Source: Takakia lepidozioides | Taxonomy: Eukaryota; Plantae; Bryophyta | Assembly (NCBI GenBank): GCA_030704615.1 | Contig: CM060734.1 | Span: 34,472,001 to 34,536,000 of the forward strand | Length of the DNA: 64,000 bases | Reading direction: 5' to 3' | In this document: positions 22,801 through 53,601 of the stretch, in pieces | Position numbering within the stretch: the stretch's first letter is position 1 | How the letters are laid out: every line of letters starts with the position of its first letter | Notes under the pieces: model-generated | Told to the model about the DNA's origin: nothing | What the model saw: the letters and a program-made list of their open reading frames with translations, nothing else | Databases searched by the model: none | Position numbers and translations under genes: made by a program

Positions 22801-23192
22801 CAGAGTCATTGCTCACGGCAGACCTGTCGGAAGCTATTTTGAAACGGGAGATAACCGACCTGCTTGACCTTGTACACAATGACGCATACCTTATACACCA
22901 TTGCTTGTCTGCGGTGCGTGTTTGCCGAGGGCAGATGCAGGACATCCTCGTCAAAAAAACTTCCGGCATGTTACACCCGGCTGCAGTACAAGCGTTCAAT
23001 TGTGTAAAAGACAACAACAACATGTCATTGAAGAGGAAAAAGGATTTTGTGGAACATTTTCAAGCTCGGCGGAAAATGAAACTAAATGGGGGGAAACATG
23101 TGTCTGCCCTTCCCCCTATTAGCCATATTTACTCGACTCTGAGGCGGGTGTCTCATCGTCCAGAACTGAGAAAGATGGATCAATCTAACTAA
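19826..23192 (+). pseudogene. MULE (MuDR-family) DDE transposase with SWIM zinc finger; spliced, frameshifted
   Basis: IVACDATFGTNHHK (~21120-21160) / FPLYTLMVFDQW*NGIPVAYI (from ~21517), AFIVDDTEAEINAI (~21672), FLCLWHVRKAW (~21968), QDTNAA.EAYHGTLK (~22246), GRRADWLIWEL, SWIM CTCPWALKGNLCKH (~22580-22625). Confidence 0.85.
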
Positions 23193-23209
23193 GGAAAGGA
23201 CCTGCAGTT

Positions 23210-24135: not shown

Positions 24136-24239
24136 AGTTTACATCATATATAAAAAAAAACAGACCTGCACCATAGACCACATGACCGAGTTTGTGCAGG
24201 TTCACTGCCCGATTTGGCTCCACTTTCAACGCACATATC

Positions 24240-25236: not shown

Positions 25237-25384
25237 AAATTCAGGCCAATGGAGCGGACGAACGACAGCCACATGTAACCCAGCAGACCCATGAAGCAGA
25301 CCCATGAAGCAGACCCATACAACCTTTTTGCTGCAAACCCATAGACTTGGTGTGTTCAGAGCATCGCAAGCAGACCAACGACAC

Positions 25385-30366: not shown

Positions 30367-32049
30367 GGCTGCAACCTAAGGAGGAATTGTGTCAGAGACG
30401 GTATGCTAAATGCAAATGAAGAAGAGCAAGCAAAAAAGGAAATGAAGGTCTGGCGGTGAAGAAGTCTGATGAAGTTGATACCTTTGCACTTCGGCAACGA
30501 CGGGCATGCGGCCTTTGAAGAGCGGGCAGGCGGCGCTACAAACGAATCGTCGAGTCGAAGAGGCAGAAATCGCGAAGCGCAACACACCGTGCAGTCGCAA
30601 AGTGGAGAGACGCGAAAGACGCAAGAGGAGGAAGAGGCGAGGACCCCAACGTAACGGCTCACTGCTAAGCGTGACAGGAGCACGCGTGCGACCGCCGAGG
30701 CCATGCACGTCGGCCATTGGACTGCCGTCGAAACATCTAACATCCCGGAGGCACAATAATGGCCACCGCCAAGGACTTCCATGGTCTGCCCTAAGTCTCC
30801 ACCAAAAGGGTCGGCCAAAAGGGTCCGCCAAAATGGTCTGCCAAAAGGGTCTGTGGCACTGGTCTGTCGCATTCGTGAGGCAAAGATTGTTTGCACTCGG
30901 TCTGCCGTCGGGGTCTGACTAGAGTTCTCCAGGCTGGTCTGTTGGTTCGGTCTTGTCGTTTGGACTGGCATGGTGCACTCTTCTCTTCTCCTGCTCTACC
31001 CATCTGGTCTGCCCTCTGTCTGCAGTGTGTCCCTACCCGTTTCACCATTTCAATGGTCCCCCAGCTGGGTCTCTGCATCCCCGCACTATCATGGTAACAC
31101 TTGGAAGGTCCACTGGTCGGTTGCACAAAATATTCTGCCACACATGCCCATTTCGTCCTGCATCGATGGGTCCACCTGCAAACAACATCCAAGAGACGGA
31201 ACTCGGGTGGAAATTGGAATTTTATACAGCCAGCCATGCACATATGCTTCCGTTATTTTTGCAGTGCCATTCCACACATGCTATATGGAGGACAAGCCTC
31301 GAACAAGACAGTGTGACAAGGGAAAGGCCGATTCTCAATTGTTGTCCGCTAAATGAGTCGTACTTGTTAGCAAAGACCTAAATACTTCCATTCAAGTCTG
31401 CACTGTAAACTCAATGTAACTCACTTCCCCGCGCTCAAACAGTGCGAACAACAAAGCAAAAATAGTAGAAGCATATGAACAAAAGAGGCTGTGGCTTGAA
31501 ACGATGGACTCCAACGTTGCCAGAGAGTCCATGGAGTCATGCAAAGGGATTCTTCACAACCGCCGAGTCTGTTGGTTCTAAACAGTCAAACAACAAACAG
31601 CAACAAGCAACACGAAAAAATAAAAATAAAATAAAATAAAATAAAAAAATTGAGGAGATCGGCGAGTGCCATGGCATGCCCTAAATCCGGATGGTCTGGA
31701 TAAAACCGGATCTGGACGGGCAGATGCGCACCACGTAGGTCTGGGTTTGTTGTGCCGGTCTGGGGTGGTCTGCCGGACGACATGCACAGACCAAGCTTGG
31801 GCAAACCGCAGCAAGGGCAGACCCACTGGGGACTCGATGGCGGGCGGGCGGGGGCCGCGATCCGGGGGCGGGTTGGGCGGCGTGCGGGGCTGCCGACCGC
31901 GCTGTGCGGCTGGCAGGTGGGGTGGGCGGGGCGGGGGAGGGCGACCCCGCGTCCGTACGGGCGTGCGCGCCCTGTCCCACACGCGCGACATAAACTCCCA
32001 ATTATTCAAAAATGAGAGGCGATTCTAAAAGATATTGGGTGGTATCTTT

Positions 32050-34973
32050 GTCGGTTTCGCATAAAGAGGTCCATGATAACATCGTCAAAGCTGGAATTGT
32101 ACCAGATGTCATTGTGAACACTACCCTGGTGGACATGTATGCCAAACGTGGATGTATTAAGGATGCGAAGGGAGTTTTCAACACTATGGTTGAACGAGAT
32201 GTCACTACAGCAAATGGGGGGGGTTTGCGACGCCAGCCGCGCCCTCACGCCCCGCGCGGCGCTGAGTCCGCGACGCTGAGCCCGCGGCGTTTTTTTTGCG
32301 ACGTCCCGGCGTCGCAATCCCCCGCTGCGACATCATTATGACGCCCAGCCGTCATAAGGTGGCATGAAGGGGGAAAGAGGGCCCTTGCTGCGACGGATTT
32401 TTTTTCTTACGACGCCCCAACGTCGGAAATCCAATTTTATTTTTATTTATTTTTAATAATATTTTTAAGACGTTGCGACGCCTCGGCGTCGCAAAAGCGT
32501 CACTAAGGGCGCCCCAGCGCCTCCGCGACGCCAAGGCGTCGCAACAATATCACCACAGTGGGAGTTTTTTTTTTTTTTTTTTTGGGGCTTTGCGGCCCTC
32601 AACTTCACAAAAGCGTGGGACGCCCAACGTTGCAACGTCAAGGGGTCGCAATGGTGTTGTGGTCAGCTTAGGTCCACACAAGGACGTCGCTTGGGGCGCC
32701 TGGCGGTGGCGGGGTACAACAACGGCGACGATGCTGGAGCTGGGGCTGGGCCTGGGGCTGGGCACTAAGGCTTTGGAGGTTGCAACTCCCCGCCATCACA
32801 AGATAGACCCCTTTAGAAACTTGAAAGAACTTGAATGAACTCTTTATATGTGTATATATATATATTTAGATTGCTTTTGTGATACATAGATGTAGCGTAG
32901 GTGTGTTGGTTAGTTTGTAGTGTCTTAGAAATGTTATAATGTGGAGGTCTTAGGTTCAAGTATGCGTTGCATGATATATGTAGAACAATGAACATAACTC
33001 CATTAGGAGTCAATGATCAACGTCGGAGTCAATGGTCAACAAATTTTTGAAATTCAAAATTCAAATTCAAATTTTTCCGCCTAAATTCAAATGTACCCCC
33101 TTAAATTGTGACGTCCGGGCGTCGCACTTTGCGACCCCTGGACGGTGCTAATTTTGCATTGCAGAATAGGGTTTTTTTTTTTTTTTTTTTTTGTCCGACG
33201 CTTGGGCGTTGCAAATCGTGGTTTCGCATATTTGCGACCCCCATTTGTCGCAAATTTGCGATGTTTTTTTGGCGACGGGCTTGCGATGCCCGGACGTGGC
33301 AAATTTGGTTTTTTTCCCCGTCCGAAAAGGGCTGTTTTACGACGCTGCGGCGTTGAACCCCCCCCCCACCCCCCCCACCCCCCCCCCCCCCCCCCTTTTT
33401 TTTTTCCTGTAATGTGTGGTGTCATGGAACACGATGCTTGTAGGATATCCACAGTAGGGACGTGGTAGGGAGGCTTTGGAGACCTGTGATCAAATGATGG
33501 GGGAAGGGGTAGAGCCCGACCACATCACGTTTCTGTGCATTTGCAATGCGTGTGCAAGCCTGGCAGCTCTGGAAAAGGGCAAAGAGGTCCATGGCGACAT
33601 TGTCAGAGCTGCAATTGTACCAAATGTCATTCTGAACAATACCCTCGTGGACATGTATGAAGGGAGTGTTCGACAGTATGGCTGAATGATGGTGTCGTGG
33701 AGTGCGATGATTGCAGGATATGTACAGCAAGGGCGCGAGATGGAGGCTTTGGAGACCTATGAGCAAATGATGTGCGAAGGGGTGAGGCCCAACCACATAA
33801 CGTTTGTTTGCATTTGCAATGCGTGTGCAAGCCTGGCACCGTGGAAAAGGGCAAAGATGTCCATGGTAACACCGTCAGAGCTGGAATTGTACCCGATGTC
33901 ATTCTGATCAACACTGCCTTAGTGGACATGCATGTCAAATGTGGGTGCATCGAGGATGCAAAGGGAGTGTTCGACAATATGGTTGAACGAGATGTGGTGT
34001 CGTGGAGTGCAATGATTGCAGGTATGCACAGCAAGGGTGCGGGACGGAGGCTTTGGAGACCTATGAGCAAATGATGTGAGAAGGGATGAAGCCCGACCAC
34101 ATCACGTTTGTGTGCATTTGCAATGCGTGTGAAAGCCTGGCAGCTCTGGAAAAGGGCAAAGAGGTCCATGGTGACATGGCAGTACAGGTGTGGCCGACGG
34201 TTCCAGAAGTCAGACAAGCTGCAGGTTTGTCAACTTATGTGTTGGCTTTTACTTGGTTGCTCACCATTTCTTCACTAGAGTCCACATCAGTTTTCTTTGT
34301 TTGGGCGTGGCTATCAGCAAATGATGTGGAAAGGGGTGAAGCCCGACCACATCATGTTTATGTGCGTTTGCAAGCCTGGCAGCCCTGGAAAATGGCAAAG
34401 AGGTGCATGGTTGCATCGCCAAAGCTGGAATTGTACCAGATGTGATTCTGAACTATACCCTCGTAGACATGTATGCCAAATGTGGGAGCATTGAGGATGC
34501 GGAGGGAGTGTTCAACAATATGGCTAATCGAGATTTGGTGTCATGGAATGTCATGCTTGCAGGATATGCACAGCAGGGGCGCGGGATGGAGGCCTGGGGG
34601 AAGGGGAGGCCTTGGAGACCTATGAAAAAATGATGGGGGAACGGGTGAAGTGTAACCACATCACGTTTCTATGCGTTTGCAATGCTTGTGCAAGCCTAGC
34701 AGCCCTGGAAAAGGGCAAAGGGTGCATGGTATTGTACCAAATGTCATTCTGGACATTGCCCTGGTGAACATGTATGCAAAATGTGGGTGCATTGAGGACG
34801 CAAAGGGAGTATTTGACAATGTGACTGAATGAAATGTGGTGTCGTGGATGATCGCAGGATATGCCCAGCATGGTTGTCATAGGGAGGTCCTGCAACTATT
34901 TGAAGGAATGCAAAAGAATGGCTTGAAGCCGGACAATATCACCTTTATATGTGTTCTCTCTCCATGCATCCAC
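32050..34973 (+). pseudogene. PLS-class PPR tract (N-terminal part of a PPR-DYW RNA-editing factor pseudogene), interrupted by a CACTA MITE
   Basis: Repeating P-L-S motifs: VEPDHITFLCICNACASLAALEKGKEVHGDIVRA.IVPNVILNNTLVDMY.KCG.IEDAKGVFDNMVERDVVSWSAMIAGY, with many frameshifts and stops; ends at [12 protein letters not shown] (~34973). Confidence 0.9.
32203..33414. mobile_element. Non-autonomous CACTA element (1212 bp) with 3-bp TSD TGT and GCGACGCC subterminal repeats
   Basis: tgt|CACTACAGCAAATGGGGG ... CCCCTTTTTTTTTTCCTGTAATG|tgt. Removing it restores the PPR motif ERDV|VSWNTMLVGY. Confidence 0.85.
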
Positions 34974-35566
34974 AGGCACAAACATCTAACCATGGTTCTA
35001 TACTCCAATGAGAACTGTTGGTTAAATGGGTGTATATCCAAATCCGTATTGGTTAATTTTTGGTCCCAAATCAAAGATATGTATAGGTTCGTCGTGCTAC
35101 AGTGGGAAGGCATGGGGAAGCATTTCAGTCGCTCATGTCGCCCTTATGGGATAGTAAGGTGGCGGCTAAAATGCCCTTAGTGCAAAGTGTCCACAAATTT
35201 GATTTGTTTGTTTTTTTTTTGTTTTTTAAAAAGGGAAACACCTGGGAGCGACAACTCACAAATCAGGCCCCTTAATAGTGAGAGGAGAAAAGTAACCTCT
35301 TTCATAGTAACTCCGCCATGAAGGTGTAGGAATGGGACAACACCCAGGATTCCAAGGAGAAGAGTATACCACACCCCTTAGTAGCAAGATTTGACCCCAG
35401 AATCATCTGGGTGGCTACACAGATCAATGAATGAAGCGAGACACTTGCATCTTGCACTCAACAGTACATGATGGTCAGTACTCTCAAGAAATGGTGGATG
35501 GTCTGAGTAGCTACACGGATCAATGAATGAAGCAAGATACTAGCATCTTTACAAGAAAACATCCTT

Positions 35567-36077
35567 TCACCAGTAATCACCACAAGAACAAATCCCATCT
35601 TCAAAGTGGTGGAAAGTAGTTACCGTCCCATACAACAATTGCTCGGCCAACAATCTTTGAATTTGGTGGAGGTGTGGCAGTCTCCACACACTCGAAGATT
35701 CTTGACGAGTCGTGCTAATCAGCCCAAAACCAATGGCCTTGGTGGCAAAGAGAAAATTCCTTTCCTCCACATCATGCAATAAAAAACGTGTGTCAGGCAC
35801 ATACCCCGCCTCCTTCATCTGCCCAGACAATCTTCTCAGCTCAGCATGGATTTCCTTAATTCTGGATGCAACTTGTCATCTGGCTCCTTTCTAACCCCTC
35901 TGACCTTCATCATTCTTCTCACCTTTGCAGTAGATTCATCGCACCTGCCAGCTGCAGCATAGATGTTTGATATAGCAACACATAAGTTGCGGCATCCTGG
36001 TCATCCCACTTGAGGATAGATGTTGCCACACATTCAGCCATCTCGACATTGCCATGGATTCTGTAGGCACCAAGCAA
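35567..36077 (-). pseudogene. E/E+/DYW C-terminal part of a PPR-DYW gene (degenerate)
   Basis: LGAYRIHGNVEMAE...; QMKEAGYVPDTRFLLHDVEE; KNLRVCGDCH in another frame; FHHFEDGICSCGDYW*. The HSE zinc-ligand segment is deleted. Confidence 0.9.
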
Positions 36078-37790: not shown

Positions 37791-38253
37791 GCTTTGAACG
37801 TCACCCCTTCCCTCTTTGCATGCTACGCACAGTGCATTGTCTCTAGTTTTGCACCAGCTGCCAATGTGCTATTTCTATATCTATAGTATACTATAAGTAT
37901 CGTTTCTGAGTGTCCATGGTGAAGCGGAAGGTCTTCGAAGTGACAGTCCCTCTCACTGAGTACGAGAAGTTCCGAGAGCGCCGGATTGCTGCCATAAAGG
38001 AGGTGGAAGCAACGTTCAAGCAGTCGATAGATGGGTGAGTTTAGTTCCTGACTTTGGATACCCACCCACTAAACTTGCGATTTGCCTTATCCTCTAACCT
38101 TCCTACAGCGATCATAAGCTTCATAGCACAAATGGGGGCGAGTAGCTGCGACTTGTACAAACAGAGAGGCAAACAACATGCAGTGAGTGACGATTAGATT
38201 TGAGGAGGGTGTGTCATTAGGCGGGAGATGTCCGCCGTCATTCGTGGGCAGGC

Positions 38254-38950
38254 TGTCGTGCGCATACATATCGCTACACAACTACATCGCTGTCCAAAAC
38301 CACACAACACATGTGCACACCACACACTAGTATACCACTAGTCCACCACTAGTCCAACCACTAGGCTACAACTAGTCAGTCACTAGGCTGCCACTATGCT
38401 GCCCACTATGGCAGTCACTAGTCCACACAATAGATAAAGAAGAAGAATACAAGCACAAGCTCATGCGAGCTCACAAAGCTGAAGCATAAACTCATGCATA
38501 TATAACCTCATCACTCAAATACAAGTCAAGCCAAGTGCACCCCACGCCATGGGGAATCCACACTACGGCGCCATAGCTAGGCGCGGTGAGGCTCAACTCG
38601 AGAAAGATGAGCCTTCCGCGCTTGCCGTGAAGATAACCACTCCAGGGCCTAAATCTGCCTTGACCCCTGGATTGACACTTGGGCCAATCCCAAATGTCAA
38701 TATGTAAAAGCTAGCTATTTCCTAGCTAGTTTCACACTAGTGGTAAAATAACTTGACAGCTGTCGTGCGCATACATATCGCTACACAACTACATCGCTGT
38801 CCAAAACCACACAACACATGTGCACACCACACACTAGTATACCACTAGTCCACCACTAGTCCAGCCACTAGTCCAACCACTAGGCTACAACTAGTCAGTC
38901 ACTAGGCTGCCACTATGCTGCCCACTATGGCAGTCACTAGTCCACACAAT
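38254..38950 (-). repeat. 3'-terminal repeat block A-B-gc-A' (complete PPT-defined LTR 38948-38433 plus an extra A half)
   Basis: A and A' differ by a 12-bp CCACTAGT-type indel. B matches 49099-49424 with about 5 substitutions counted by eye. PPT-like AGGGGGGCG on minus at 38959-38951. Confidence 0.9.
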
Positions 38951-39208
38951 CGCCCCCCTAGCTGGTGCTTAGGTCCCTCTAAGTCCAGGTAGCCACAAGA
39001 TGTGATAGTGACCATAGCCTCACTAAGTCCTCCACCACTATCCCTACTACACTCAAACTCGATAGATCAAGAGGCCGGGTGCAAGAGTTGCCCCATCGTT
39101 AGTCGCCGTCTTGCAACCTGTGAACTTGAGCTTGGGATCTCATGTATTGACTCCTATGAGCTTGGCCTCCCATGTCTTGTTAGCTGCCTCCAGTCATGTC
39201 CACTGCCA

Positions 39209-39365
39209 CTATCCCAAGCAGTGTGGACACAACCAATCTCCGTCAGGAACCTTCTCAAGAGGTGGTGTCAAGCATCCCATATGCCAACCCCTTGAGCATC
39301 GATCACACACCAGCATGGTGGCTGCCCCTTTGGCAGACCCACAGAGCATGCACCTCAAACCTGCA
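39209..39365 (-). CDS. PHD finger at the integrase C-terminus
   Basis: CMLCGSAKGAATMLVCDRCSRGWHMGCLTPPLEKVPDGDWLCPHC is a canonical C4-H-C3 PHD pattern, in frame with the integrase core. Confidence 0.93.
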
Positions 39366-39379
39366 GGTACCACTGCCAA

Positions 39380-40520
39380 GTTTGGGTCAACTCTGCCATC
39401 GACATTGGGAAGGTGACATGGCGCACAATTACGCACATGGTCCTTCCAAGTCATGCCATCCCGACCCTCTAAGATCAGGACCCCTGAGGGCAACACCTCT
39501 CGAACCCTCAGAATAACACGCCCTGCAGTAACATCCAGAGTCGTAGGAGCAGTCTGCTGCAAATAAACATAGTCACCAGGGCTAAACCTCCGAACCCCAG
39601 GACGATATCCTCCACCACGTATAGTGGCATACCTCAACGTATCACGGTGCTGTGCAATGGCAAGGTTCTCAAAAGCCATGGGCATGACTTTCTTGAACAA
39701 CTCTGCACGCTGATCACATGCACGTACCCACACGTCCGGATCGTCAAGGTTAAGGACTTGAGCAGTGTCCCTACGAATGGCTGCAGGCAAATCCGGCTCT
39801 CGGCCAAAGAGAAGGAAATATGGTGAGAAGGAGGCAAGTGATGCTTGTTTGCTGAACCTGTAGCCCATGGCTAACCAAGGAACCTGAAGATCCCAATCTC
39901 CTAGGTGTCCCTTCTGCAAGCCATACTTGCGCAAACCCCTCTTCACCGTCTGAACAACTCTCTCTGCTAAGCCATCGGCCTCAGGATGATCCCGAGAAGT
40001 GGTGCGGTGGTCTATCAAGGCTTTATCACACAAAGCCTGAAACTCCCCCAAAACTCTCTCCCTTGGTCCGTGAGTACCTCAGCTGGAGCACCAAATCGGC
40101 TAAGCACACGATCCAAGAATGCATACGCAGCCCCCTCACTAGCCTTGTCAGGCAATGGAACCAACTCAATCCACTTGGAGAAGTGCTCCACCATCACCAA
40201 CACATATCTGTGGTGGCGCATAGTCAGTGGCAACGGTCCTGCGAAGTCAAGACTCCACCTGTAGCCCAATCCCATGATTGGTAAAGGATGCAACTGTGGT
40301 GTAGGGGCGTTGAATGAAGCACGCACCCTGTCACACACCATGCACCTAGCCACGAACTGTTGCACCTCTGTATGCATACCACGCCACCAATACTGCCCCT
40401 GCAGTAAACTGTGAGTGCGTCGCACTCCAAAATGCCCCAACTCCTCATGGGCATGCCGCACTAACCGTGCACGCTGTGTGGGGTGAGGCACAATCCTCAC
40501 CCGACCATCCTCCCACACTC
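39380..40520 (-). CDS. Integrase (HHCC zinc finger + DDE core), frameshift near 40050
   Basis: HAHEELGHFG...CMVC; WSLDFAGP; VLTDQGREF; HPEADGLAERVVQTVK. Confidence 0.93.
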
Positions 40521-40799
40521 GAAGTAGGTGTATCCCCTCCCACTTGAACCTCTTGGCTCGTTGCAGGATCCGATCCCTCTCCCTGGCAGTCACAATGGCT
40601 GCCGTGTCTCCCGTGCGGAGGTAGTCCAACACAGCCGAATCCTCATGTATATCTCTGGCACCACCTAGCTCATCACTAGCCTCAGGGTCCTCAGACACTC
40701 CGTCTACAGTCATCCCTGTTGTAGGTCCAATCTGACCTCCCGATGCCAAGATACACAAAAATGCAGATGCGTGCCATCCCGGCACCATCTCCTCGTCCG

Positions 40800-42265
40800 T
40801 CTCACCATGCCACCGAGCTCCAGTGTCATCCTGCTGGCTCATGCATGGATTGCGACTCAATCCATCCGCATCCCGATTGACCAAACCCGGTCGATGCACA
40901 ACCTGAAAGTCATACTCCTGGAGTATAAGTGCCCACCGTGCAAGCTTCCCCGTAAGCTTGTCTGACTCCATCAACCACTTGAGTGGCTGGTGATCCGTGA
41001 CAAGGGTGAAAAGATTGCCGTATAGATAGCACCTGAAGTGTGCCACGGCCCACACTGCAGCTAAGCACTCTCCCTCATATGAGCTGTACTTAGCCTCTGC
41101 AGCGTTGTTCAAGCGGCTAGCGTAAGCCACTACGAACTCTCTTCCCTCATCATCCACTTGTGTGAGCACCGCTCCAAGCCCCAGCATGCTCCAATCCGTA
41201 TGCAGCTGAAAGGGACGCCCCCTGATAGGTCGTCTCAAGATAGGCGCCGAGGTCAACCTCGCCTTGAGCTCTTGAAAAGCTCGTTCCTGCTCATCTTCCC
41301 ACTGCCACTCCTGGTCCACCTTGGTCAGCTTGGTTAGAGCCTTTGCAATGGTACTAAATCCCTTGACAAACCGTCTATAATAGTTTGCCAACCCCATGAA
41401 AGCTCGAACTCGGCTCACATCCGTGGGGCGTGGAATTTGTGCAATGGCCTCTACCTTAGTCTGCTGTACCCCCAATCCTCCAGGATATATCATGTGACCC
41501 AGATACTCAATCTGGTTGTGGAAAAACTTGCACTTCCCCGGATGCAACTTCAATCCGTGCGCTCCAATACCACCTGAAGGTGTCTCTCATGCTCCTCCAT
41601 CGTAACACTAAAGATGATGATGTCATCTATGTAGCACCGAGCAAAGTCCACCCCTGCTAGAATCCTATCCATGACTCTCTGAAACTCTGCAGGAGCATTC
41701 TTAAGCCCAAATGGTAAGAACCGCCACTGATATAGGCAATCCTTGCCGTGCTCATTGATCCCCCAGAATGTCGTCTTTGCTTGTCCGCCTCCTTGATTGG
41801 CAACTGGTGATATCCGGATCGTAAATCCAAAGTGCTAAAGGCCTTAGCATGCCCGATGGCATCAAAGATCTCCTCTAGTGTTGGCATGGCATACTTATCG
41901 GACTTGGTCTGACGATTTACAGGCCGGTAATCACCGCACATACGTCTCTCCGTCCAATTGCCATAGACATCCTTCTTGGCTGGCATCACTGTGGCTGAAG
42001 CATACTCTCCACCAGAGAGCTCCACCAAACCTGCCTCCCAGAGATCTTGAGTCCTCATCTGAATCAAAGACCTCTCCATGTCACTGTATCTATAGGGTCT
42101 CCGAAAGATTGGGGTGTCAGTGGCCAACTCAATACGGATCTCTTGACCCTTCAGTGCTCCCAAGTCCTTCAAACTGAAGGCAAAGCAATTCCTGTAAGCC
42201 CTCAGGAACCGCCGTATACGTCGTCTCTCTCCTCCGGTGACAATGGGTCCAATGTCAGGCTCCAA
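40800..42265 (-). CDS. Reverse transcriptase and RNase H (Gypsy type; frameshifted)
   Basis: RMCGDYRPVN...YAMPTLEEIFD...STLDLRSGYHQ; YIDD at 41633-41622; KLHPGKCKFF...YLGH; RNase H FQLHTDWS...YSSYEGECLA...TDHQPLKWL...NRDADGLSR. Confidence 0.95.
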
Positions 42266-42619
42266 TTGTCCTCCGTAACTGCAACCTTAAGTCCAGTGGG
42301 CTTAGAGGTAGAGGACGCGTCCAGTGGTTGCTATGTTGCAACCTCTTGAGCAGTACTCCCTGCCTGCTCAGTCAATGACAAGGCCTCATCCTGCCCCATC
42401 ATCTCATCCTTGAGGACCTCCTCAACCCGAGAAGAATCCCCAACCTCATCCATCACAGCCGCCTTGGCTGCCAACTCCCTCTGAACCTCGAGCACCTCCC
42501 ACGTGTGCCATGGATGCATGCACCCCGTGGTCCTCACATGCTCGCCCCCACTCACTGCCTGTACCGTCTCGGTAGGCAGAGAGACCATTGAGGGAAGTGT
42601 ACTCCGCACTCTGCGTTGC

Positions 42620-43585
42620 TCAGCCAAGCCAAGCTGATAATCCAGGTCAAGCAATTGAGATCCATTGCTTGCCCCAACACTTGACGACGTGATGCCTCAG
42701 AAAGAGACGACACCGCCGTGGTACCAGTGGTAAAACCCATTGCCCGCTCACGCTCGTCAGCATTAGGCTCCACTAACTGCTGCAACTGAGCATCCCACAG
42801 GAGGCCAGGTCCACTATCCCGGAAAGCATGCGATCCTGGGAAGCTGAGCAGTGTAGGTAATGCTGCTCGTGGTTGACCCACCTTGTTGACCACTGCCAAA
42901 GGCGAACGGTCATCGTGTCTCACACGCTGAGACTGCCTCCCTGTGTCCAGAATGTTATCCACTGTGAGATGTGCTGGCCGCTGCACCCATCAAATGCACG
43001 CTTGAGCAGTGCGGGTGGCATCAAGTTAGTCCACCATAGCCGTGGACGATGAGCCCGTGACCCCACTGTAGCTGCATCTAGCAACACTGCTGACCCAAGC
43101 CACGACCGGACTTGATGCACACTGGCCATCACCCTGGCCCGAGAATCGCCCATCAGTGGCACATTCTCCAAGATGTATGCTGGAGATACAGCTTGATGAA
43201 GCTGCAAGTGGCGCAAAACCCGCACCATCTCCCAAAACAGACCCGACCTCGAGTCTCGCAATCCATTGCCATGCCCGGCTGATGAATGCCCTTGGCAGGG
43301 CCAACCTGCCACTACCAGATCAATGGAGCCAACCCGCTCCAAATCCTGCGCCCCCAGCAACGAAATGTCTGCTGGCAAGGCCTGCTGATATCCACGAATT
43401 GCAGACACCGACAACAACTCAGGGTACCGCTGCACCAACTGAGCAACATGGCGAAGTGAAACGCGTCGTGCAGTCTCATCCCTCTCCACATACAGGTAAC
43501 GCCGAACTCGTACACCTGCTTGTAACACAGCAGCCAATCCGGTGCTGATCCCGCCAAACAAGTCCAGAAGACAAATGCCTTCATC
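42620..43585 (-). CDS. C5 cytosine DNA methyltransferase domain, DNMT3-like with non-permuted motif order, within the retrotransposon polyprotein (frameshift near 42985)
   Basis: Motif I LLDLFGGISTG, II YVERD, IV IDLVVAGWPCQGHS, VI YILENV, VIII LDAATVGSRAHRPRLWWTNL (ORF 42920-44386, same frame as the protease). Motifs IX-X ERERAMGF...RRQVLGQAMDLNCL follow in ORF 42552-42986. Confidence 0.92.
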
Positions 43586-43899
43586 CGGATACTGCCACAC
43601 AATAGGTGTGGTGTCCAATGGAGACAATTGAGGTGGTCCTGGTGCAATCCCCACTCTCCTCCTCTCCTGACGGTACAAAAGCCTCCACCCAGGCTTGTTG
43701 CACCCGTCGATCAGCATCCCGCTGCAAATCCTTGCTCGTGCCCACAATGGAGTCTGAGCAACCATGGTAGGCAACTCCGCCATACCATACATGTCATCCT
43801 GCTCTCCCGGAGGTGGTACATCCTCTGAATGAGCATTGCCCTCAAGCAACTCTCTAGGCCAACTCACTGCCGCTGTGAATGCTGCTAGTGTCGGCATCT

Positions 43900-44386
43900 T
43901 GCCTCGCTGGGCAACCGCAACTCCTCCTATGAACGTCACAGGGAGTTGCACACGCCGGCCCTCCCCTGACTGCCATGCAGGCCTATAGGAAGCTGACTCC
44001 TCCCAAAAATCCAGGGTGAAGCCCATGGGGTACAACACTGCCCCACCAACCAGGACATCGTATGAGACTGCGTCTGTCACAATGGCCTTGGCTCGCATCA
44101 CTGAGCCATCTGTAGGGTGATCCGGCCGTAGTCTGATAGCCAACTCACGCCGTGTCATGCCCCGAGCCTGCTCCGATCCTCCCAGAGACGTCTGTATCTG
44201 GAAAGGACAAGGCTCCATATCCGCCTCCGTGAGGCCCAAGCCTGCAATAGCAGCTCTGCCCAGCATCAATGGCTGAGCTCCCGAGTCCAACAAGACCCGC
44301 AGTGGCCGGTACCTCTTGCCTGCCGGTCCACTCAAACAGAAAATGTCATCCTGGTTGTCTAACATGACAACTCCAGGTGTCACCAT
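43900..44386 (-). CDS. Retropepsin-type aspartic protease
   Basis: RVLLDSGAQPLMLG (DSG at 44287-44279) ... SYDVLVGGAVLYPMGFTLDF. Confidence 0.85.
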
Positions 44387-45072
44387 GGCGCGCTCAATGG
44401 CTGGCCTAGCTGTCAGCTGCAGCTTGCCATGGCGCCGCCGTGGCAGTCTTGACCCTCAAATCCGAGGATCCCTCCGGCACTACACCTCCCACTATCTCCG
44501 CAGAAGATGAAGTAACCTCCCCACTCTCACAGAGTGTAGCTGCCAGCCTGAACACCTCAGCTGGTCTTACCCCCGGCGTCGCAATCATGGTAGCCGAGAA
44601 CAATGGAGCCTGGCACACAGATGTGGCCGCTCCTAGCAGCACACTAGCTGCCGTAGCCTTGGCAACACTAGGTAGTGGTGCTACCCGTGTAGCTCTCCCC
44701 AATGGCATAGTAACCTCCGCCTCGGTAACAGTCGGGCGAGAACTAGGTGCCATGGATGGCGTCGACACTGTCTCCGCCAATGTGAATGACTGAGGAAGCC
44801 TAGCCTGACGGCTTGCCTCCCCACGCTGTGGATCCAACTCCACCTCTGCACCTCGTGGCTCAGGAACTCGTGCTGCTCCTCGAGTCACGGCTGCAGCAGA
44901 CTCCACCTGCACTAGTGGTAGTGCTGCTCCACACATGAATCCCATGCCTCCCATATCTCCTCCCTCAGGAGCAGGAGGTGGACCATCCGGCCTTAGAGCC
45001 GGTACCACCTGAGCTGTAGCCATGGCAGCGAGCCTCTGCTCTAGCTGCTGAAGCCAGTTGGCCATGCCTTGG

Positions 45073-46487
45073 TCAACCCCTGACCTCCGCGTCCTTGGCC
45101 ATGTTGAGCTTGCCCTTGGCCTGCACCTCTGGCTGGCCACCTCGTCCTCTCTGGGCTGCTCCACCTCGCCCCCGGCCACCATTGTTCCCTTGGAACTGGC
45201 CTGGGCGCAACTCAGGATGCAAACCATAACACTGGGCCTCTCCATGCCCGTGCTTGCCACAATGCCCACACTGCAACTGTGCAGGCTGTGCATGTGCCGG
45301 CCCTTTGCCTCCCTCTGGGCAATCCTTCTTGACATGGGGTCCTCCACATGTCCAGCACACCACATCCGCCCGTTGTTGGCCAGCAAATGAAGGGAGAGAC
45401 CCCTGCATCTGAGGTCCTCTCTGCCCTTCCCTGAGCTTCACCTGAGCCCCCTTGTTGCCTTGAGCACGTTGAGGTAGTGGTTGGCTAAGAGCACCACTAC
45501 CCCGTGGTGTCTCCTTAGCAAATCCCACCATGACCACTCGTTCCTCCACCATGTTGAGCTCTATCCGCTCTGCCAGCAAAAACACATTTGCTAAGGTGGG
45601 TTGGGCCGCTTGTAGGAGAGTTGCATCCCGCACCCTTCTCCTCAGCTCCTTGTCCAATATCCCATACCAGAATTGGACTGCCTGAGCTTCCGTAACCCCT
45701 TGGGTTACATTTATCAAGCGCCTCATGCGAGTGAAAGCCTCCCTCAAGCTCTCGGTCGGCTTCCGTTGGAACTCTTGCAAGCTCCGCAACTTCTCTGTCC
45801 TCACCCCTTGGTAGTTCCCTCTCAACTCTTCGAAGAACTCCACAACAGGGTTGAAGGCAGGCACGGGTGCTAGTGCTGGTGCGGTAGTGGCTTGGGTGGA
45901 CGTCGTAGCTACTGTACCACCAGTCCCACTAGTTCCACTGCTACTTGCTGAAGCTGCCGGTGCAGCGGCAGGTGTAGCCACTGCCCTCGTGGCTCTAGTG
46001 CCCCTAGTGATGGAGACATAGTTGGTGACCAGTACATCCTCCACTCCTCGATCTCAACCTCATGCCCCCGCCTGAACTCATGGTAATCATCCATAGGCGG
46101 CCCCTCAAGGTGCTGAAACAGCCCCTTCCATGCCATGAAAGGCGTAAATAGTTGTGGATTGCGCATTTGCTGCAAATCACACCAACTATCAAACTCTTGG
46201 ATAAAATCATCCAACTCGATGGTGCCCACCGCCCCAGAGTACCTTCGTGGCCCCTTGGTAGCTCCATACATCTCCTCCATTGTGTCCCACAACAATGGCA
46301 AAGAAACAACTTGCACCGCCGGTATGAGTCCTCCTGATTCACAATCCGAATCAGAACCTTCCGTAGAAGACACAGGAGGTGAAGGTGGCCTAAACCGCAC
46401 ACCTCGTCTCGTGTACCCACTAGTATCGCTAGTGCTCAAACCGGCACTGTCCCCAGCAACTAGTGGCACCTCCGTGTTGACACTCAA
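45073..46487 (-). CDS. Retrotransposon Gag with two CCHC zinc knuckles (one frameshift)
   Basis: YSGAVGTIELDDFIQEFDSW; LQEFQRKPTESLREAFTRM...AVQFWYGILDKELR; CWTCGGPHVKKDC and CGHCGKHGHGEAQC. Confidence 0.88.
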
Positions 46488-47149
46488 CCGGTCATGAACA
46501 TGTCCCTAACCCCCTCTCCACAAGGTAACTGAGTAGAGAACCTGTTGCGGCTTATGGTTTGGAATACTAAATTCCTAACATAGCCTACACCTGTACCTGC
46601 ATCCACCGCAAGCACTCCTATGGTTGGCTGGTCATCACCTCCAACCTCACCACAGGAGAAACAATGATGGTCTGGCTGGTCATCACCCCAGCCTCGCCAT
46701 CAACAGCATGCTCTAGGACTGGCCGGTGATCAAATCCGGACCAATCACCTATAAAAACAAGCGCCCACACAAAACTAGCATGGCACACAGTCAAGCATGC
46801 AGGTATGGAGGGGATCCAAACACAAGAAATCAGAACGACAACTCCCCCACACCAAAAATAACTCCACGGTGTTGCTCCTGCAAGGACACCCCAGCCCAAA
46901 CCCGGACTGACTCTTGCCTCCACCTACGGAAAGGTCTTGGCCTAATGAGAGGGTGGAAACTACGAGGAAGAGAAGCTAAAGCAATGCCTAACCCCAGCAT
47001 GACCTCATCCCAACACTCTTCATCTCCTCTCTTCCCTCACTTGCATGACCATGGGAATATCATGAAGATACTCCTCAAATTGCCCTCCACGAGCTTCAAA
47101 ATTCGGCCTTCAAGACCACATACCAGACCTTAGGTAGTCCACCAGTGCC

Positions 47150-47680
47150 TCCACGAGTCAGCACAGGCCGTCCACAGGTCAACACGGGCCCACACAGCTC
47201 ACTGCTCACAGCCGTCACAGGCCCACAGGCCACTAGGCACAGCCTGTCACAGCCCCTCATAGCCCGTCACAGCTCGCCACAGCCCGTCACAGCCCCACAG
47301 GCCACAGGGCACAGCCCGCCACAGCCTGTCACAGCCCCGCACAGCCCGTCACAGCCCCACAGGCCACTGGGCACAACCTATCACAGCCCCTCACAGCCCT
47401 CACAGCTCGCCACAGCCCCTCACAGCCCCAAAGGCCACGGGCACAGCCTGTCACAGCCCCTCACAGCCCGTCACAGCCCCAAAGGCCTCGGGCACGGCCT
47501 GACACAGCCCCTCACAGCCCGTCACAGCCCCAAAGGCCTCAGGCACGGCCTGTCACAGCCCCTCACAGCCCCACAGGCCACTGGGCACAGCCTGTCATAG
47601 CCCCGCACAGCCCGTCACAGCCCCACAGGCCATAGGGCACAGCCCGCCACAGCCCCGCATAGCCCGTCACAGCCCCATCC
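47150..47680. repeat. Degenerate CACAGCCC tandem array in the retrotransposon 5' leader
   Basis: Dozens of cacagccc/cacaggcc units over ~530 bp. Confidence 0.9.
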
Positions 47681-49097
47681 ATGGCCGCTCTGGCAGTTTA
47701 GCCATTTCTCCAAGGGGTTTAGCCACGCCAAGCTAGGGTTTGTGTCTCTTGGACTCTAGGCTTCTTTCCATCGAGCTATGGCGGCTGTGAGGAAATCAGC
47801 AAGGTATTCTTGCTCTTTCGGCTCCCACACACCACCATAGTAGCCCTAAGCCATGAGGTGGTTGCCACAAACCAAGCCTTTTTTCTCACTTAGCCTCCCC
47901 AAACACGCCACTAAACTCAATGGCAAACAACCAAGCCCTGCTGGTTCCCAGCCCTTGTGAGCACTCATTCAAGCACTCTCCTTGGCCATAGCATCTGTCT
48001 TAGAGCCTATTCCAGCCCCCTACACCTGCTGCTTCAAGAGTTGCGTTCCCTTCAAGCTTGAAGTTGAAACCCCAACTCACATAGGCCCTACAAGTGCTTT
48101 TCTTTCACTCCAAGTGGAAACCAGCCCTAGACCTTCCGTTCTAGCTCTCTAAAGCTTGAAAACAAGAGCCTCAATGGGCTGAAGGCATGCTCCACACATG
48201 CCCCACTCTCACCATAAGAGAATCAGCTCCTTTGCTTCATTTCTTGCACCCACAAACCTGAAAATACAAGCTTTCACCAGGCTGATAGCATGCTCCACAC
48301 ATGCATTGCCCTCACATAAGGGAAGTCAGCCCTTCCCTCTTCCTTGCTTGCCCTCTAAGCTTGAAGATGGAAGCTTCAATTAGCTGAATACATGCTCCAC
48401 ACATGCAACCTCTTCACACAAGAGATATCAGCCCCCTATCTTGGCTCCTTGATGCTCTCTAAGACAAGACTAAGCACTCCACAGCCTTTGCCAAGCTCCT
48501 GAAACCCTAAGGCTTACATTTCCACCCACAAGACACTTCTCTTGTGGTGCAAGAGCTCTTCTTCCAAGCTCTGAAACCCTAGGTGCACATTCCATGGCCT
48601 TGCCGCACCTCTTAGTTCCTGTTCCAGCCCTGCTCTTGCCATGACAAGAGCCCTCTCAATGCTGAAGCTCGAGATTGAAACCCAATCTCACCATACTCCA
48701 CAAAGTGCACTGATTTGCCCCAAGCCAAATCAGCCCTTTCGCTTGGTCTTGCAATCCTTCACACAATGAAAGCTCGCATTCCCAAGTCCAGTTCTCAGCT
48801 TTGCCACCAAAGCCACTATAACCTGCTCTTGACTGGTCCTCTTCCCAATCGTGCTTGCTCATGCATGTACACAATCTGAAAATCAAGGTGCTCTGGAATT
48901 ACCTGCAACATGGTGCTTTCATCTCTGAAGCTGAAGATCGAATGCCAAGGTCTACCACCTCGTAACCCACATCGCCTCCGCTTCTAACAACCAAGAGCTC
49001 CACGGTGCTCCTTGCATAACAACTTGGTTTCTCTCATTCTCAAGCAAAAACCACAAGTGCTACAACTAACTCGTATCTGGCACTCACAGATACGAGC

Positions 49098-49424
49098 TGA
49101 TAAAGAAGAAGAATACAAGCACAAGCTCATGCGAGCTCACAAAGCTGAAGCATAAACTCAGGCATATATAACCTCATCACTCAAATACAAGTCAAGCCAA
49201 GTGCACCCCACGCCATGGGGAATCCACACTACAGCGCTATAGCTAGGCGCGGTGAGGCTCAACTCAAGAAAGATGAGCCTTCCGCGCTTGCCGTGAAGAT
49301 AACCACTCCAGGGCCTAAATCTGCCTTGACCCCTGGATTGACATTTGGGCCAATCCCAAATGTCAATATGTAAAAGCTAGCTATTTCCTAGCTAGTTTCA
49401 CACTAGTGGTAAAATAACTTGACA
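49098..49424 (-). repeat. 5'-terminal repeat (B half only, ~326 bp)
   Basis: gataaagaagaagaatacaagc...aaaataacttgaca is near-identical to 38433-38758; on minus it reads TGTC...TTTATCA. Confidence 0.92.
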
Positions 49425-49452
49425 AGGCATTACGTCCTGGTAGGGTGCGGCT

Positions 49453-52400
49453 GTGGTTCAGCGTAGGCTTAAGAGGGTATGTATGCTTACATTTGTTTGT
49501 GATTGTTTGAGAGGGAGGTCATGGAGGTGTTTGTGCAGGCTTGCAGGAGCGAATCGCCCTCGCAAGCCACGCGCTCCAAAGGAAAAAAGTAGGGATCAAG
49601 GTCCTACAAGGCAAAGTGCCAGACTGAAGACGATGAAGACTACGATTTTGCATGAGGGCTCTTCTGAGGACGATGAGGACGATCCACACCTCCCACGCCA
49701 GTGCGAGGCGAGTGCGTCGTCGGCGGATGCCATGGCAAGCCGAGGAGAACATGCCCATGCTCATGTCGCAGGACAAAAACGCCCATCATCTACACTACGA
49801 ACACCTTCTCCGTCTGTGAGTTATAGTTCTTCACAATGACCATGATTCTAATTATGTATGTTTTTGGTAAAATCACGAAGAGATAGGGTATGTCTGTCAA
49901 GACAGGGAAGTTGGACAATGCAGGGGTCAGCCAAGGCACAATCACAAATGATTTCCACTAGACAAGTTGAAGTGCCAAAGGCATGATGTCAGGCCAATGT
50001 AGACTTCAAGTGTGTTCAAATTCTTTGCCCCATGAAACCAACGTCCTGGTACTAAGCTACAATGGCTACTTATAGAGATACTTGGGTTACTTATGCACCC
50101 AGAATATCAGTAAAACTTGGAGGGATACTTCTCATGGACCCATCAGGTTTGTCCATTTGAATTCTTGCTATGGATTTCAGGAACACCCCGGCTCAAAAAT
50201 GTACTGGGAGGACATCATTGGGGCCAATCAAATTTGGGAGATTTACTGCCCAAGATCATACTGAGTTTTGGGTAATCTTGTCTTTACAAATGATATGTGC
50301 TTCCAGTTTGTTTTGCCTGAATTCAAGGATTTGCTGCTTGTTGCCTATATGTATGTGTAATCACCCACATTGTACTGGGGGAATTTCTTTTCAGGGCAAG
50401 CACAAGCGCACTGGATCCACGATCCCTGCTGCTAGCAATGGAGATGGCGCCCACAAGAACGCAGGAGGTGGCCCTAACTCTCCCAACGTTGTGGGTTCTG
50501 TGCCACCAGTACCCCCACCTTATTATGGTATGCCTCAGTACCCACAGTCTGGCACTCAGTATGGTCATGGTCAATATGGTGCTCCTCCATATGGGCAGTA
50601 TGGCCAGTATCCTCCTCCACCATATTTGCCACCCCCTAATAGCTATGGGGGTGGCAGGCCACCAGAATATCCTCCTGCTTATGGACAGTATGGTCCTCAG
50701 CCTTCTGGCCAACAACCATGGCCACCAGTCCCTACTTGGCAGGATCCTGCTTTGAATTCTCCTGAGCGCACGGAGGTCTCTGAAGGAGGGGAGGGTGTCG
50801 TTTCAAAGAATGATAGAACCAATGCTTTAAGGAGGGCCAATAGCTCAGCCAAAATTGAAGCTGCCAAGGTCAAGGAAGAGAGAATAGCTGCAGGTCTTCC
50901 TCCCACGGTGATTTTGACGAACCTCAAAGGAGCCCCATATGGTCAGACCCGGAATGTATGGCACGCTGCCCTTAAAGGACAGGCTTATCGCAAGCTAGAT
51001 TGTTCCCTTGCCATCAACAACCAACCTGATGAAGTTGTATACGAAATCAGAGATCACCTGGCTATTTTCATATACGCCGCACGAGTTAAAAGACTTCCAC
51101 CTAAAACAAACAATTGGCAGAATAATGAAGAGCCAGCGTTATGAAGCACACACTGCGTGGTTGGGTGGTAAGGGGAAATCCATTACTGTATCTGACAAGG
51201 TATGGAACAAGCTTGTAAGTTACTGACAGACAGAGGTGTTCCACAAAGTGTCGGGCAACATGAAGAAGGCAAATGGTGCAATTCTGAATCCTACCAAGAC
51301 TGGCCGTGGTGGGAAGGCAATGGTGGAAGTACGTTTGGTAAGTGGCATCATCACGACTCTGTATTTTGTTCCTCATTGAATTGCTATGTGTATATAGTCA
51401 GCCCTCACATTGCTTACTGACTTGTGGCATGGATTAATTTGTAGGAAACACTACCAGGGTGCCCTCCTACATTATATGAAATTCAAGAGGGTTCAGTGTC
51501 ACGGTTGTCAGCTGGGAGTGACAGGCGGGTAAGTGTGTTTTCCACGTTTGCTAGAGTGGTTGCTGCATCATAGGTTGCTAGGGTTTTTTCACGGCTTTTG
51601 GCCTGGGTTTTCTTTCCAATGGTTGTTCATGCTAGGTTTTTTGGGTTTGATTCATACTTGGGCAAGTTTTCATGGATTGGCAGGAGGGAAGTCTCGCATA
51701 TTCTACAGTAGTTGGCAGGATGGATGGCTTGGACAAACTGGTGGAATCACAAGGACGTGACATGGCAGAATTAAAATTACAGATGCAGAGTATGATTGAG
51801 TACCAGAAAGCCACTGTGACGAGATTCTACCAGGCGCAGGACCAGTGACATCTACGATGGATACGTCTGCTGTGACAGTATCAAAATGTTTGGAATCCCA
51901 ATTTCAGATGGTAACTGGTGCTCACTCTAAGCCCTTATGTCTTCCTGTCACTGATGATCTTTTGAATTTGACCGAGCAGCAGCAGGATACAGGGAAGGCC
52001 AGCTGTGAGGTACATGTGGAAATTCAGCCCTTGCCACGTACAAAGGCAGTAGCAGTCCAGGGGGCAATGGTGACAGAGCGGCCGGGCACACCGGATTCTG
52101 GTATGCAGGTATGTGGGAGTTTAGATGGGGAGGAAGATGCAGACGGGGACAAAACAAACAAGCAGGTTGCTTTAATTTCTCCTGCTCACATGTTGAAGCC
52201 AAATGTCAGTTTACTTCCTGGACCAACGAGGAAGCATTTACTAATTCTGGACTTAAATGGTCTGTTATGTGAATCTTTTCATTCTGCTAATGGGCCTGCA
52301 TCCCTTCCCAAAGGTTTTGTGGGGAAGATGTGTGGCAAGAAGATGGTAGTTTTGAGACCACGCTGTTATGACTTTTTGCAAAAGTGTTTTGAACACTTTG

Positions 52401-53601
52401 AGGTGGCGGTGTGGTCTTGTTGCCAAGCTCGCAACTTCTTCCCAATGGTGGACTATATTTTTGCAGCCCACACTAACCTGGTTTTCCAGTGGGATGCCCT
52501 TCACTGTGACGAGGATCCAGTCCTCCCATGCCATAAGGGGTCTGATTCAAAGCCATTATATTTCAAGAACTTGTCTACAGTGTGGGCAGACTGGCCAGAA
52601 TGGACTTATGAGGACACTGTTCTTGTTGACAACACACCAAGAAAGGCGGCAAACAATCCTCCTTCAGTGGGATTTTTCCAGAGCCATGGAAGGTGCAACC
52701 AGATTCACCAACTGATGAGTATCTAATAGAGGTGTTGTGGCCTTTCTTGTGGAAGGCATCGAAAGCTGCCAGTATTCCCAAGTTTTTGGAGTCTCAGCCT
52801 GTTTTCGGACAACAACCATACAACACTGCTACTGTGAAGGTACAAACATTCTGACAGTGCTCCAGAGGCTACATTTTTGTGGGTTCATTCATTGCATTGC
52901 TTTCTTGGATGCTTCTCCTCGGTTGCTTGATTAATGCTAGGTTTTCTTTGCAGCTTTTCATGTTGGTTTTTTTTGTTTGATTCATACTTGGATTTTGTTT
53001 CTATTCACTATTCCTGTTTGCTCATTGCTTTCCTGGTTGATCTCTGGTCTGTGACACGGGAACTTGTGACAAACAAAGGTGATATTGTCGACAAGCCGGT
53101 ACAGACGAGGGGCAAGAGTGTCGACCCGGCGAGTAGCCCCCCAAAAGAGGTCTCACCACCACTGGAGACTGCAAATGGAGTAAGTCCAGGCCGTTGTCTT
53201 GTCTGTTATATTTTTCCAACCTTGGGGCTCTCTTTAACTCGCAAATGTTGAGTGTCCTAGTCGTGTGTATGTCATGGGTTTTCACATCGTGTTCTTTTTT
53301 GTGTGGAGTTGGGATCACAGTTCAGGGTGGGTGACGAGGTTCGGTTGTTGGATGTGAACTCCAAACGCATGAAATGTGGAGTAGGCTGATTGTTGCTCTT
53401 CAAGGTGTTGTGGTGGGTTACGGGTACCCTGCTGTGCCCCTTGATTATGCCTGTGTGTACATCAAAGAGGCATGTGTCAGTAACATCCCTCTACCATATG
53501 TGAATGGTGTTAGGAAACAGACCGAGTTGGGGCAGGTGGTTGGCCAGACAACACTTTGGAGTCTAAAGTTACTGAAACTTATGGAGCTGCGGAATGGATA
53601 G
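49453..53601 (+). pseudogene. CACTA accessory (TnpA/Ptta-like) multi-exon gene region
   Basis: P/G/Y-rich tract, then TNLKGAPYG...WHAALK...WNKLVSY*...TKTGRGGK (50900-51340). C-terminal YACVYIKEA...PLPY...LGQVVGQTTLW (53374-53601) resembles En/Spm-like ORF2 C-termini. Exons not resolved. Confidence 0.55.
52225..52720 (+). CDS. FCP1/NIF-like HAD phosphatase-homology domain inside the CACTA element
   Basis: KHLLILDLNGLL...VLRPRCYDFLQKCFEHFEVAVWS...FQWDALHC...FKNLSTVW...TVLVDNTPRKAANNP (in ORF 51845-52726); apparent frameshift near the end. Confidence 0.82.

Follow-up and report, generated by a model that had tools for sequence, protein, structure and literature searches.

Results

Structure of the element at the locus

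The window analysed here is a stretch of 64,000 nucleotides of Takakia lepidozioides (contig CM060734.1 of assembly GCA_030704615.1, positions 34,472,001 to 34,536,000). It contains a Gypsy-type element of 11.2 kb with the order gag-protease (PR)-cytosine methyltransferase (DNMT)-reverse transcriptase (RT)-RNase H (RH)-integrase (INT)-PHD finger. The features of the element, with the minus strand given as (-), are:

38254..49424 (-), whole element, TG...CA ends, A-internal-B-A-B
38250..38253, target-site duplication AGGC, left copy, 4 bp
49425..49428, target-site duplication AGGC, right copy, 4 bp
49099..49424 (-), repeat A1, the element's 5' end, 321/326 identical to A2
49068..49098 (-), hairpin immediately past A1, at the expected tRNA primer-binding position (folding compared with 200 shuffles)
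47186..47685, ~10-bp units repeated in tandem within the long 5' leader
45199..46280 (-), gag (Retrotrans_gag, weak), with zinc-knuckle-like motifs at 45357-45331 and 45270-45229
43930..44416 (-), aspartic protease (LLDSG), in the frame of DNMT motifs I-VIII
42627..43590 (-), DNMT3-like C5 cytosine methyltransferase domain, motifs I-X linear, one frame break near 42986
43567-43538 (-), DNMT motif I, LDLFGGISTG
43498-43484 (-), DNMT motif II, YLYVE
43309-43289 (-), DNMT motif IV, AGWPCQG
43174-43160 (-), DNMT motif VI, ILENV
43054-43022 (-), DNMT motif VIII, AHRPRLWWTNL
42767-42735 (-), DNMT motif IX
42677-42660 (-), DNMT motif X, LGQAMD
42325..42333 (-), in-frame stop TAG followed by CAACCA, end of the gag-PR-DNMT ORF, type I readthrough context
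41559..42286 (-), reverse transcriptase, YIDD at 41633-41622
40912..41300 (-), RNase H (Pfam scan)
39500..40480 (-), DDE integrase with H2C2 finger and rve core (Pfam scan)
39209..39352 (-), C-terminal PHD finger and stop (PF00628, E 4.3e-11)
38951..38959 (-), polypurine-tract-like run directly ahead of B1, present likewise in loci L005, L013, L017, L022 and L024
38761..38950 (-), repeat B1
38755..38764, palindrome GACAGCTGTC at the B1/A2 junction, its halves matching the element's two ends
38433..38758 (-), repeat A2
38254..38431 (-), repeat B2, the element's 3' end

An earlier, sequence-only reading of this DNA had reported repeats of ~98% identity; the identity was borne out (321 of 326 positions), but the repeats are not ordinary LTRs, the A repeats (326 nt) being one half of a split A-internal-B-A-B arrangement in which B measures ~180-190 nt. 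The A-coding-B-A-B order is seen in the window and in L022, and in part in L005, L009 and L050/L051. A canonical LTR retrotransposon was ruled out by these split repeats without two complete direct LTRs, and since there is no ordinary LTR pair, LTR finders would likely miss such elements. A tyrosine-recombinase element of the DIRS, Ngaro or PAT type was ruled out by the rve integrase, the 4-bp target duplication and the Pfam scan of nine element ORFs, in which no tyrosine recombinase family was found.

No TGG-type tRNA primer-binding site was seen by eye after A1, and no tRNA genes were found in the 64-kb window with ARAGORN. The hairpin in this place has a folding z-score of -2.1 in the window (4 of 200 shuffles were equally stable), -0.9 in L022 and -0.2 in L005; given this modest support, tRNA-free priming is treated as a lead. 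The CpG observed/expected ratio is 0.52 in the element and 0.55-0.67 in the flanks, a depletion no stronger inside the element, and CpG/CWG depletion as a trace of self-methylation did not separate the element from its flanks.

Several other features lie outside the element. A B-box/CONSTANS-like 16 gene occupies 12374-13849 (-), with its best named matches in Physcomitrium, Ceratodon and Sphagnum, which mark the host as probably a moss. Broken gene remnants, which we take to be of the PPR family, are spread across several repeats (4280-4730, 32057-35875), one of them ending in a DYW-like motif. An ORF with an NLI-interacting-factor-like phosphatase domain (51800-52726 (+); PF03031, E 2.9e-13), which adjoins a proline-rich ORF (50161-51144), possibly belongs to another mobile element. 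A region of 12.6 kb (19399-32018) that is flanked by GC-rich inverted repeats (125 nt, 91%) and contains short tandem arrays is possibly a DNA transposon remnant, and nested inverted repeats of ~180 nt with 97-98% complementarity (62866-64000) reach the window end.

State of the window copy

The assembled copy (39209-46280) carries at least nine frame changes, in line with the earlier description of it as frameshifted, and has no stop codon in 1451 aligned codons, compared to 4-21 stop codons in decayed Sphagnum-type copies. All ten listed internal length differences from read contigs are shortfalls in the window sequence, and six of the ten fall in runs of at least three like bases, compared to 17% at random sites. 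One-sided shortfalls in like-base runs, together with the absence of stops, favour assembly (long-read consensus) error over decay, and we lean slightly towards this explanation of the frame breaks. On this view the copy may be younger, and less damaged, than the assembled sequence suggests. In contigs from three public runs each of the 30 bins into which the element was divided is covered, those of DNMT among them; many variants are present, and depth is well above that at the flank (depth is not equated with copy number). The family appears to be multicopy in its host.

The methyltransferase domain

All of the C5-methyltransferase motifs that had been noticed between protease and RT were found, on the minus strand and in linear DNMT3 order. 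A stop-free ORF at 44455-42920 (-) holds the protease (LLDSG at 44293-44279) and DNMT motifs I-VIII in the common frame that had been proposed, and motifs IX and X lie in a different frame, past the break near 42986. In a Pfam scan of 11 ORFs the domain matched PF00145, the family that had been suggested for a check, with 49.2 bits (cut-off 22, E 6.6e-13); an Atlas search confirmed PF00145 and returned nothing further.

The family profile of the domain comprises 28 alignment rows. Of these, 27 span the key residues, and without exception they have the catalytic Cys, E-N in motif VI and the two Arg of R-x-R in motif VIII. A profile search of the PDB placed DNMT3A at the top (E 1e-19), followed by DNMT3C/B, DRM (3e-10) and M.HhaI (1.5e-6). 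An AlphaFold model was obtained for the domain of L002, a natural unbroken relative with 72% identity to the window's N-terminal DNMT piece (pLDDT 92.7), and its best structural match is DNMT3A bound to CpG DNA (6f57, TM 0.73, 21% identity). DNMT3A is thus ranked first by both profile and fold, as expected from the claimed resemblance to DNMT3 and not to the permuted DRMs. Human DNMT3A is ~21% identical to the family domain; DNMT3A/B are nearest by fold and sequence, and DNMT2 is far behind. By profile and predicted fold the domain is DNMT3-like and stands nearer to DNMT3 than to DRM, DNMT2 or the bacterial enzymes. DNA methylation is its likely, predicted activity, by analogy with these relatives.

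Selection on the domain was examined in 17 pairs. Between the window and other families, pS is 0.67-0.78, with synonymous sites near or at saturation; pN between the window and the four nearest families is 0.17-0.21 for DNMT, 0.14-0.18 for RT and 0.26-0.30 for protease. With codons filtered to locally conserved ones, a filter that favours conserved codons, the dN/dS of DNMT is 0.07-0.09 in the three Sphagnum-type pairs with computable dS and 0.23 between the window and the distant L026; dS was saturated and not computable in three pairs. Among decayed Sphagnum-type copies, dN/dS is 0.5-0.65 for DNMT and 0.25-0.86 for the other domains, as expected of copies after insertion. Neutral evolution of the domain (dN/dS ~1), raised earlier as a possibility, is not what was found where the ratio is measurable, and the substitution pattern indicates that DNMT is under purifying selection.

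Relatives and two architectures

A first protein search returned 50 proteins, with Marchantia, Calypogeia, Sphagnum and Closterium as named sources, and a profile search for DNMT relatives returned 58. At 50% identity, 540 clusters reach E<=1e-30, of which the best 150 were examined. Metagenome loci were represented by the best 80 of 106 confirmed (L001-L080). Two architectures could be distinguished. Architecture I, gag-PR-DNMT followed by RT-RH-INT-PHD, is that of L001-L033 and L080, several of which are partial; architecture II, RT-RH-DNMT-INT-PHD in a single long ORF, is that of most of L034-L077. Among 139 new top representatives, 91 have architecture II and 6 architecture I, with 42 unassigned between them. 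An architecture-II protein (P0158) comes from the chlorophyte Scenedesmus sp. PABB004, the one host named among 20 clusters looked up.

Intact relatives, whose existence had been surmised, were found: unbroken DNMT domains occur, for example, in L002, and Marchantia polymorpha has unbroken gag-PR-DNMT genes such as Mp_4g09160. With relatives in liverworts, Sphagnum, Closterium and Scenedesmus, the one-off capture named earlier as a possible refutation does not hold. There are no vascular-plant names among the family matches, which is weak evidence of absence.

Quick, unrooted trees were constructed for DNMT (70 rows) and RT-RH (41 rows), without host DNMT3 or Klebsormidium rows, the searches having yielded neither a host DNMT3 nor a sequence named Klebsormidium. 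In the DNMT tree the window groups with the bryophytes Calypogeia, Marchantia and Sphagnum (SH-aLRT 99), and architecture I is a single group in both trees (support 94 by DNMT, 100 by RT-RH). Several architecture-II subgroups also recur in both. As the same main groups are seen in the two trees, DNMT appears to have been broadly co-inherited with RT. The outgroup, P0084, is a distant match (25% identical) whose branch is very long; it resembles SymbioDIRS-Dnmt3, of whose kind it is a likely member, in having a DNMT3-like domain after RT.

One architecture-II locus has an unusual composition: L040:1-6500, with an unbroken ORF of 1997 aa, contains no CAG/CTG in 6500 bases, with ~185 expected in 6 kb. 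Host CWG methylation followed by deamination and an enzyme of different specificity are two candidate causes of this total avoidance of CWG.

A conserved stop between DNMT and RT

The gag-PR-DNMT ORF of the window stops at a TAG (42333-42331) followed by CAACCA. Of the 35 architecture-I rows (the window and 34 loci), 26 have a TAG or TAA in the same place and in a similar setting; in the other nine, motif X was unmatched (six), an insertion interrupted the region (two) or the row was incomplete (one). The 26 rows represent five families, between which the sequence flanking the stop differs, and they form a single group in the RT tree (support 100). The exact CARYYA context is present in three of the five, the window and L002 having CAACCA and L026 CAATCA; the Sphagnum-type family, the commonest, has CAACCC and L027 has TAGCCA, each one letter off. 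The background frequency of CARYYA after TAR triplets in the same loci is 0.4%. Where the locus is undisrupted, RT continues the frame of the stop; in the window itself a break just downstream hides the frame. An ATG past the stop is not conserved, being absent in four of the five families; only the Sphagnum-type has one, in frame and two codons 3' of the stop.

Database proteins show the same division. Marchantia, Calypogeia and many further proteins end ~80-160 residues past motif X, Closterium and a few other proteins run from DNMT into RT, and some Marchantia and Sphagnum gene models bypass the stop region as if spliced. UAG-CAR-YYA is known as the type I (TMV-like) readthrough signal of plant viruses, in which UAA works too, as described in the accessible part of PMC3542737. 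The context here is the same, and its mechanism would be the same to judge from sequence. These elements did not appear among the papers listed in a general open-licence literature search on stop readthrough.

The conserved in-frame stop separates DNMT from RT, which in the land-plant lineage assigns the enzyme to a predicted Gag-side product and not to Pol proper; most translation would yield gag-PR-DNMT, and RT-RH-INT-PHD would arise rarely, by readthrough. The earlier description of DNMT as an integral pol domain stands in so far as the domain is integral, conserved and selected, and fails in placing it inside Pol with RT, since it ends the Gag-protease ORF at a conserved stop.

The junction palindrome

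The ends of the element are the exact halves of the palindrome GACAGCTGTC minus its central GC. In 560 kb of loci this 10-mer was found 13 times, compared to 0.7 expected. All 13 fall in the portions downstream of PHD, which total 78 kb in 35 loci (many incomplete). They represent ~8 independent groups and both architectures, and each is followed by repeat A. The three elements for which both ends are available (the window, L022 and L009) all have 4-bp target duplications. Palindrome halves lacking GC, together with 4-bp duplications, are what 3' processing by an integrase would leave.

A symmetric two-LTR-circle model, which predicts that B-GC-A should sometimes precede the internal part, is disfavoured, this being seen at none of seven independent 5' ends. 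The substrate for integration could be either a circle or linear cDNA with its ends rebuilt from the internal junction. Two loci, L013 and L017, end in the order internal-B-flank, which could reflect a one-repeat circle, recombination or assembly collapse. Extra bases at the A/B junction in L009:11348-11365 and L010:5690-5707 copy the sequence past A1, resembling an imperfect circle junction; a copy with such extra bases is internally rearranged, yet keeps its 4-bp target duplication.

Discussion

Proposed mechanism and alternatives

The position of DNMT at the end of the Gag-protease ORF would likely give Gag-level output of the enzyme. We hypothesize that occasional readthrough of UAG-CAA-YYA yields RT-RH-INT-PHD, that the protease frees DNMT from the Gag-side polyprotein, and that many DNMT copies are packaged per particle. 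There the enzyme would methylate the cDNA, with CG as the presumed context given what animal DNMT3 and SymbioDIRS-Dnmt3 do, and new copies would thereby be pre-marked; the integrase would take each palindrome half as an end, remove GC and join the CA ends to a target whose chromatin the PHD finger may read. We are evenly divided on the core of this proposal, namely that DNMT is made and packaged at Gag-like abundance and methylates new cDNA in the particle before integration. Such abundance would not be needed family-wide, since in Closterium and architecture II DNMT and RT share one ORF. Also counting against the proposal are the lack of methylation by KnitGypsy-Dnmt3 in yeast, a CpG depletion that does not exceed that of the flanks, the Sphagnum-type CAACCC with its ATG, and the gene models that bypass the stop region.

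A different site of action is conceivable, if rather unlikely: DNMT might work after integration or in the nucleus, together with integrase-PHD or released in bulk, its targets being other copies or the site of insertion and its function self-regulation or a brake on dosage. The PHD finger on the integrase and the large free enzyme pool that a Gag-side position would yield are in keeping with this, as is the methylation of CHH in heterochromatin by the host DNMT3b of Physcomitrella, according to the part of that report available. The fusion of DNMT to RT-RH or INT in architecture II and Closterium, however, would suit action in cis on cDNA. A non-DNA role, such as RNA methylation, nucleic-acid binding or base flipping in priming, is improbable. 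It would accord with the hairpin found where an evident tRNA primer site was expected and with the inactivity of KnitGypsy-Dnmt3 on DNA in yeast, but in fold and sequence DNMT3A/B, which act on DNA, come closest, well ahead of DNMT2, and SymbioDIRS DNMT3 domains methylate CG (both reports as given in the accessible part of PMC5890265).

The role of DNMT would be unchanged if the domain were real and selected and RT were expressed by splicing or re-initiation instead of readthrough, which we regard as unlikely. Gene models P0008, P0039, P0014 and P0021 do span the DNMT region into RT, with P0008 and P0039 bypassing the stop region, and the Sphagnum-type ATG could serve re-initiation. Gene callers often invent introns around stops, however; RT is in frame with the stop in unrelated families, four of five families lack the ATG, and the CAA-YYA context persists despite saturated synonymous sites. 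That the domain is a one-off capture, or a recent retrocopy of host DNMT3 in a dead element, is scarcely credible: the at least nine frame changes of the assembled copy would fit, but relatives are spread from liverworts and Sphagnum to Closterium and Scenedesmus, with 540 clusters at E<=1e-30 (best 150 of 540 examined), the domain is under apparent purifying selection and just ~21% identical to human DNMT3A, and contigs of three runs span DNMT with the rest of the element.

Methylation of cDNA by packaged enzyme can be placed in a broader reading, offered tentatively, of an ancient green-plant lineage that combines a Gag-level methyltransferase acting on cDNA with palindrome-defined, tRNA-free, DIRS-like replication by a DDE integrase. 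A DNMT3-type enzyme would have been carried since before the chlorophyte/streptophyte split and moved within the polyprotein; the readthrough stop of the land-plant branch would have put it on the Gag side, with many copies per particle; and ends would derive from the built-in palindrome, possibly by cutting of a circle, with priming without tRNA and DIRS-like replication.

Instead of a capture in a single alga, these observations point to a large family of the green lineage that comes in two architectures. What retrotransposon DNMTs do was left as a question in 2018, when activity of the Gypsy type could not be demonstrated; the unbroken genes of the model liverwort Marchantia polymorpha bring it within reach of experiment in a plant for which genetics and methylomes are available. 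Enzyme dosage can be predicted from the readthrough stop, and the palindrome offers a concrete substrate for the handling of DIRS-like split repeats by a DDE integrase. Element ORFs also inflate DNMT counts in bryophyte annotations.

Comparison with known systems

Retrotransposons carrying a DNMT were named in the sequence-only reading from Klebsormidium and dinoflagellates, and this precedent is correct (de Mendoza et al. 2018, PMC5890265, accessible part, as for all statements on these two elements below). KnitGypsy-Dnmt3 of Klebsormidium nitens has a Gypsy domain set, an unpermuted intronless DNMT3 with Ka/Ks <0.2 and DIRS-like A-coding-B-A-B repeats; according to the authors, DNMT lies in one ORF with RT and RNase H, and the acquisition took place in the K. 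nitens lineage. It showed no de novo methylation in yeast, a result that its authors call inconclusive, and SymbioDIRS-Dnmt3 of a dinoflagellate methylates CG in yeast. The DNMT3-type domain and the A...B-A-B repeats are common to SymbioDIRS-Dnmt3 and the Takakia element, but the former has a tyrosine recombinase and the latter a DDE integrase.

In the integration step, the closest parallel is the foamy-virus integrase, reported to cut palindromic LTR-LTR junctions (PMC1180852, accessible part). Cleavage of either palindrome would give processed CA ends; the palindrome here is a permanent component inside the integrated element and not just a by-product junction, and its cleavage is putative. 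These elements did not appear among the papers listed in an open-licence literature search on junction cleavage.

REM1 is reportedly a PHD-bearing Gypsy element of Chlamydomonas. Gypsy-7a_cRei of the same genus is a further green-lineage case of a PHD finger in a Gypsy polyprotein, but no DNMT domain is listed for it in the part of PMC9940879 available, and it is likened here by description only. The EpiLTRs/DAM-LTRs (bioRxiv 10.64898/2026.05.21.726589) are Gypsy-like too and encode both a DNA methyltransferase and a chromatin-reading domain; their DNMT, unlike that of the Takakia element, is the sister group of DNMT4 and is accompanied by DAM and a chromodomain. The accessible text of that preprint refers to 'streptophyte Gypsy-DNMT3' as a separate, earlier-described acquisition, and in the available portions of a 2025 paper and of this 2026 preprint Gypsy-DNMT3 is cited as a streptophyte case without naming land plants. 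No description of Gypsy-DNMT3 in bryophytes or chlorophytes was found in the open-licence PMC and bioRxiv literature (figures and several supplements excluded), and the supplement of PMC12344493 gave no match.

A Gypsy-DNMT3 with DIRS-like A...B-A-B repeats is already known, having been published in 2018, to judge from the accessible text; the readthrough-context stop, the conserved junction palindrome and the chlorophyte RT-RH-DNMT-INT-PHD architecture were not found in the literature searched. In the available part of PMC5890265 no mention of a junction palindrome or target duplications was found for KnitGypsy-Dnmt3, and 'PHD' is absent from the main text, whereas the Takakia element has a PHD finger. 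Unlike KnitGypsy-Dnmt3, the Takakia element resides in a land plant, with relatives spanning bryophytes, Closterium and Scenedesmus, and its DNMT is split from RT by the conserved stop; the single DNMT-RT-RNase H ORF described for KnitGypsy-Dnmt3 is instead seen in Closterium and the architecture-II relatives. The two elements have in common the Gypsy set PR-RT-RH-INT with a DDE integrase, an unpermuted DNMT3-related domain, the A-coding-B-A-B repeats and purifying selection on DNMT. Judged by features and not by a tree, with three shared (domain set, repeats and selection on DNMT) and the common RT ORF lacking, the Takakia element appears to work like KnitGypsy-Dnmt3.
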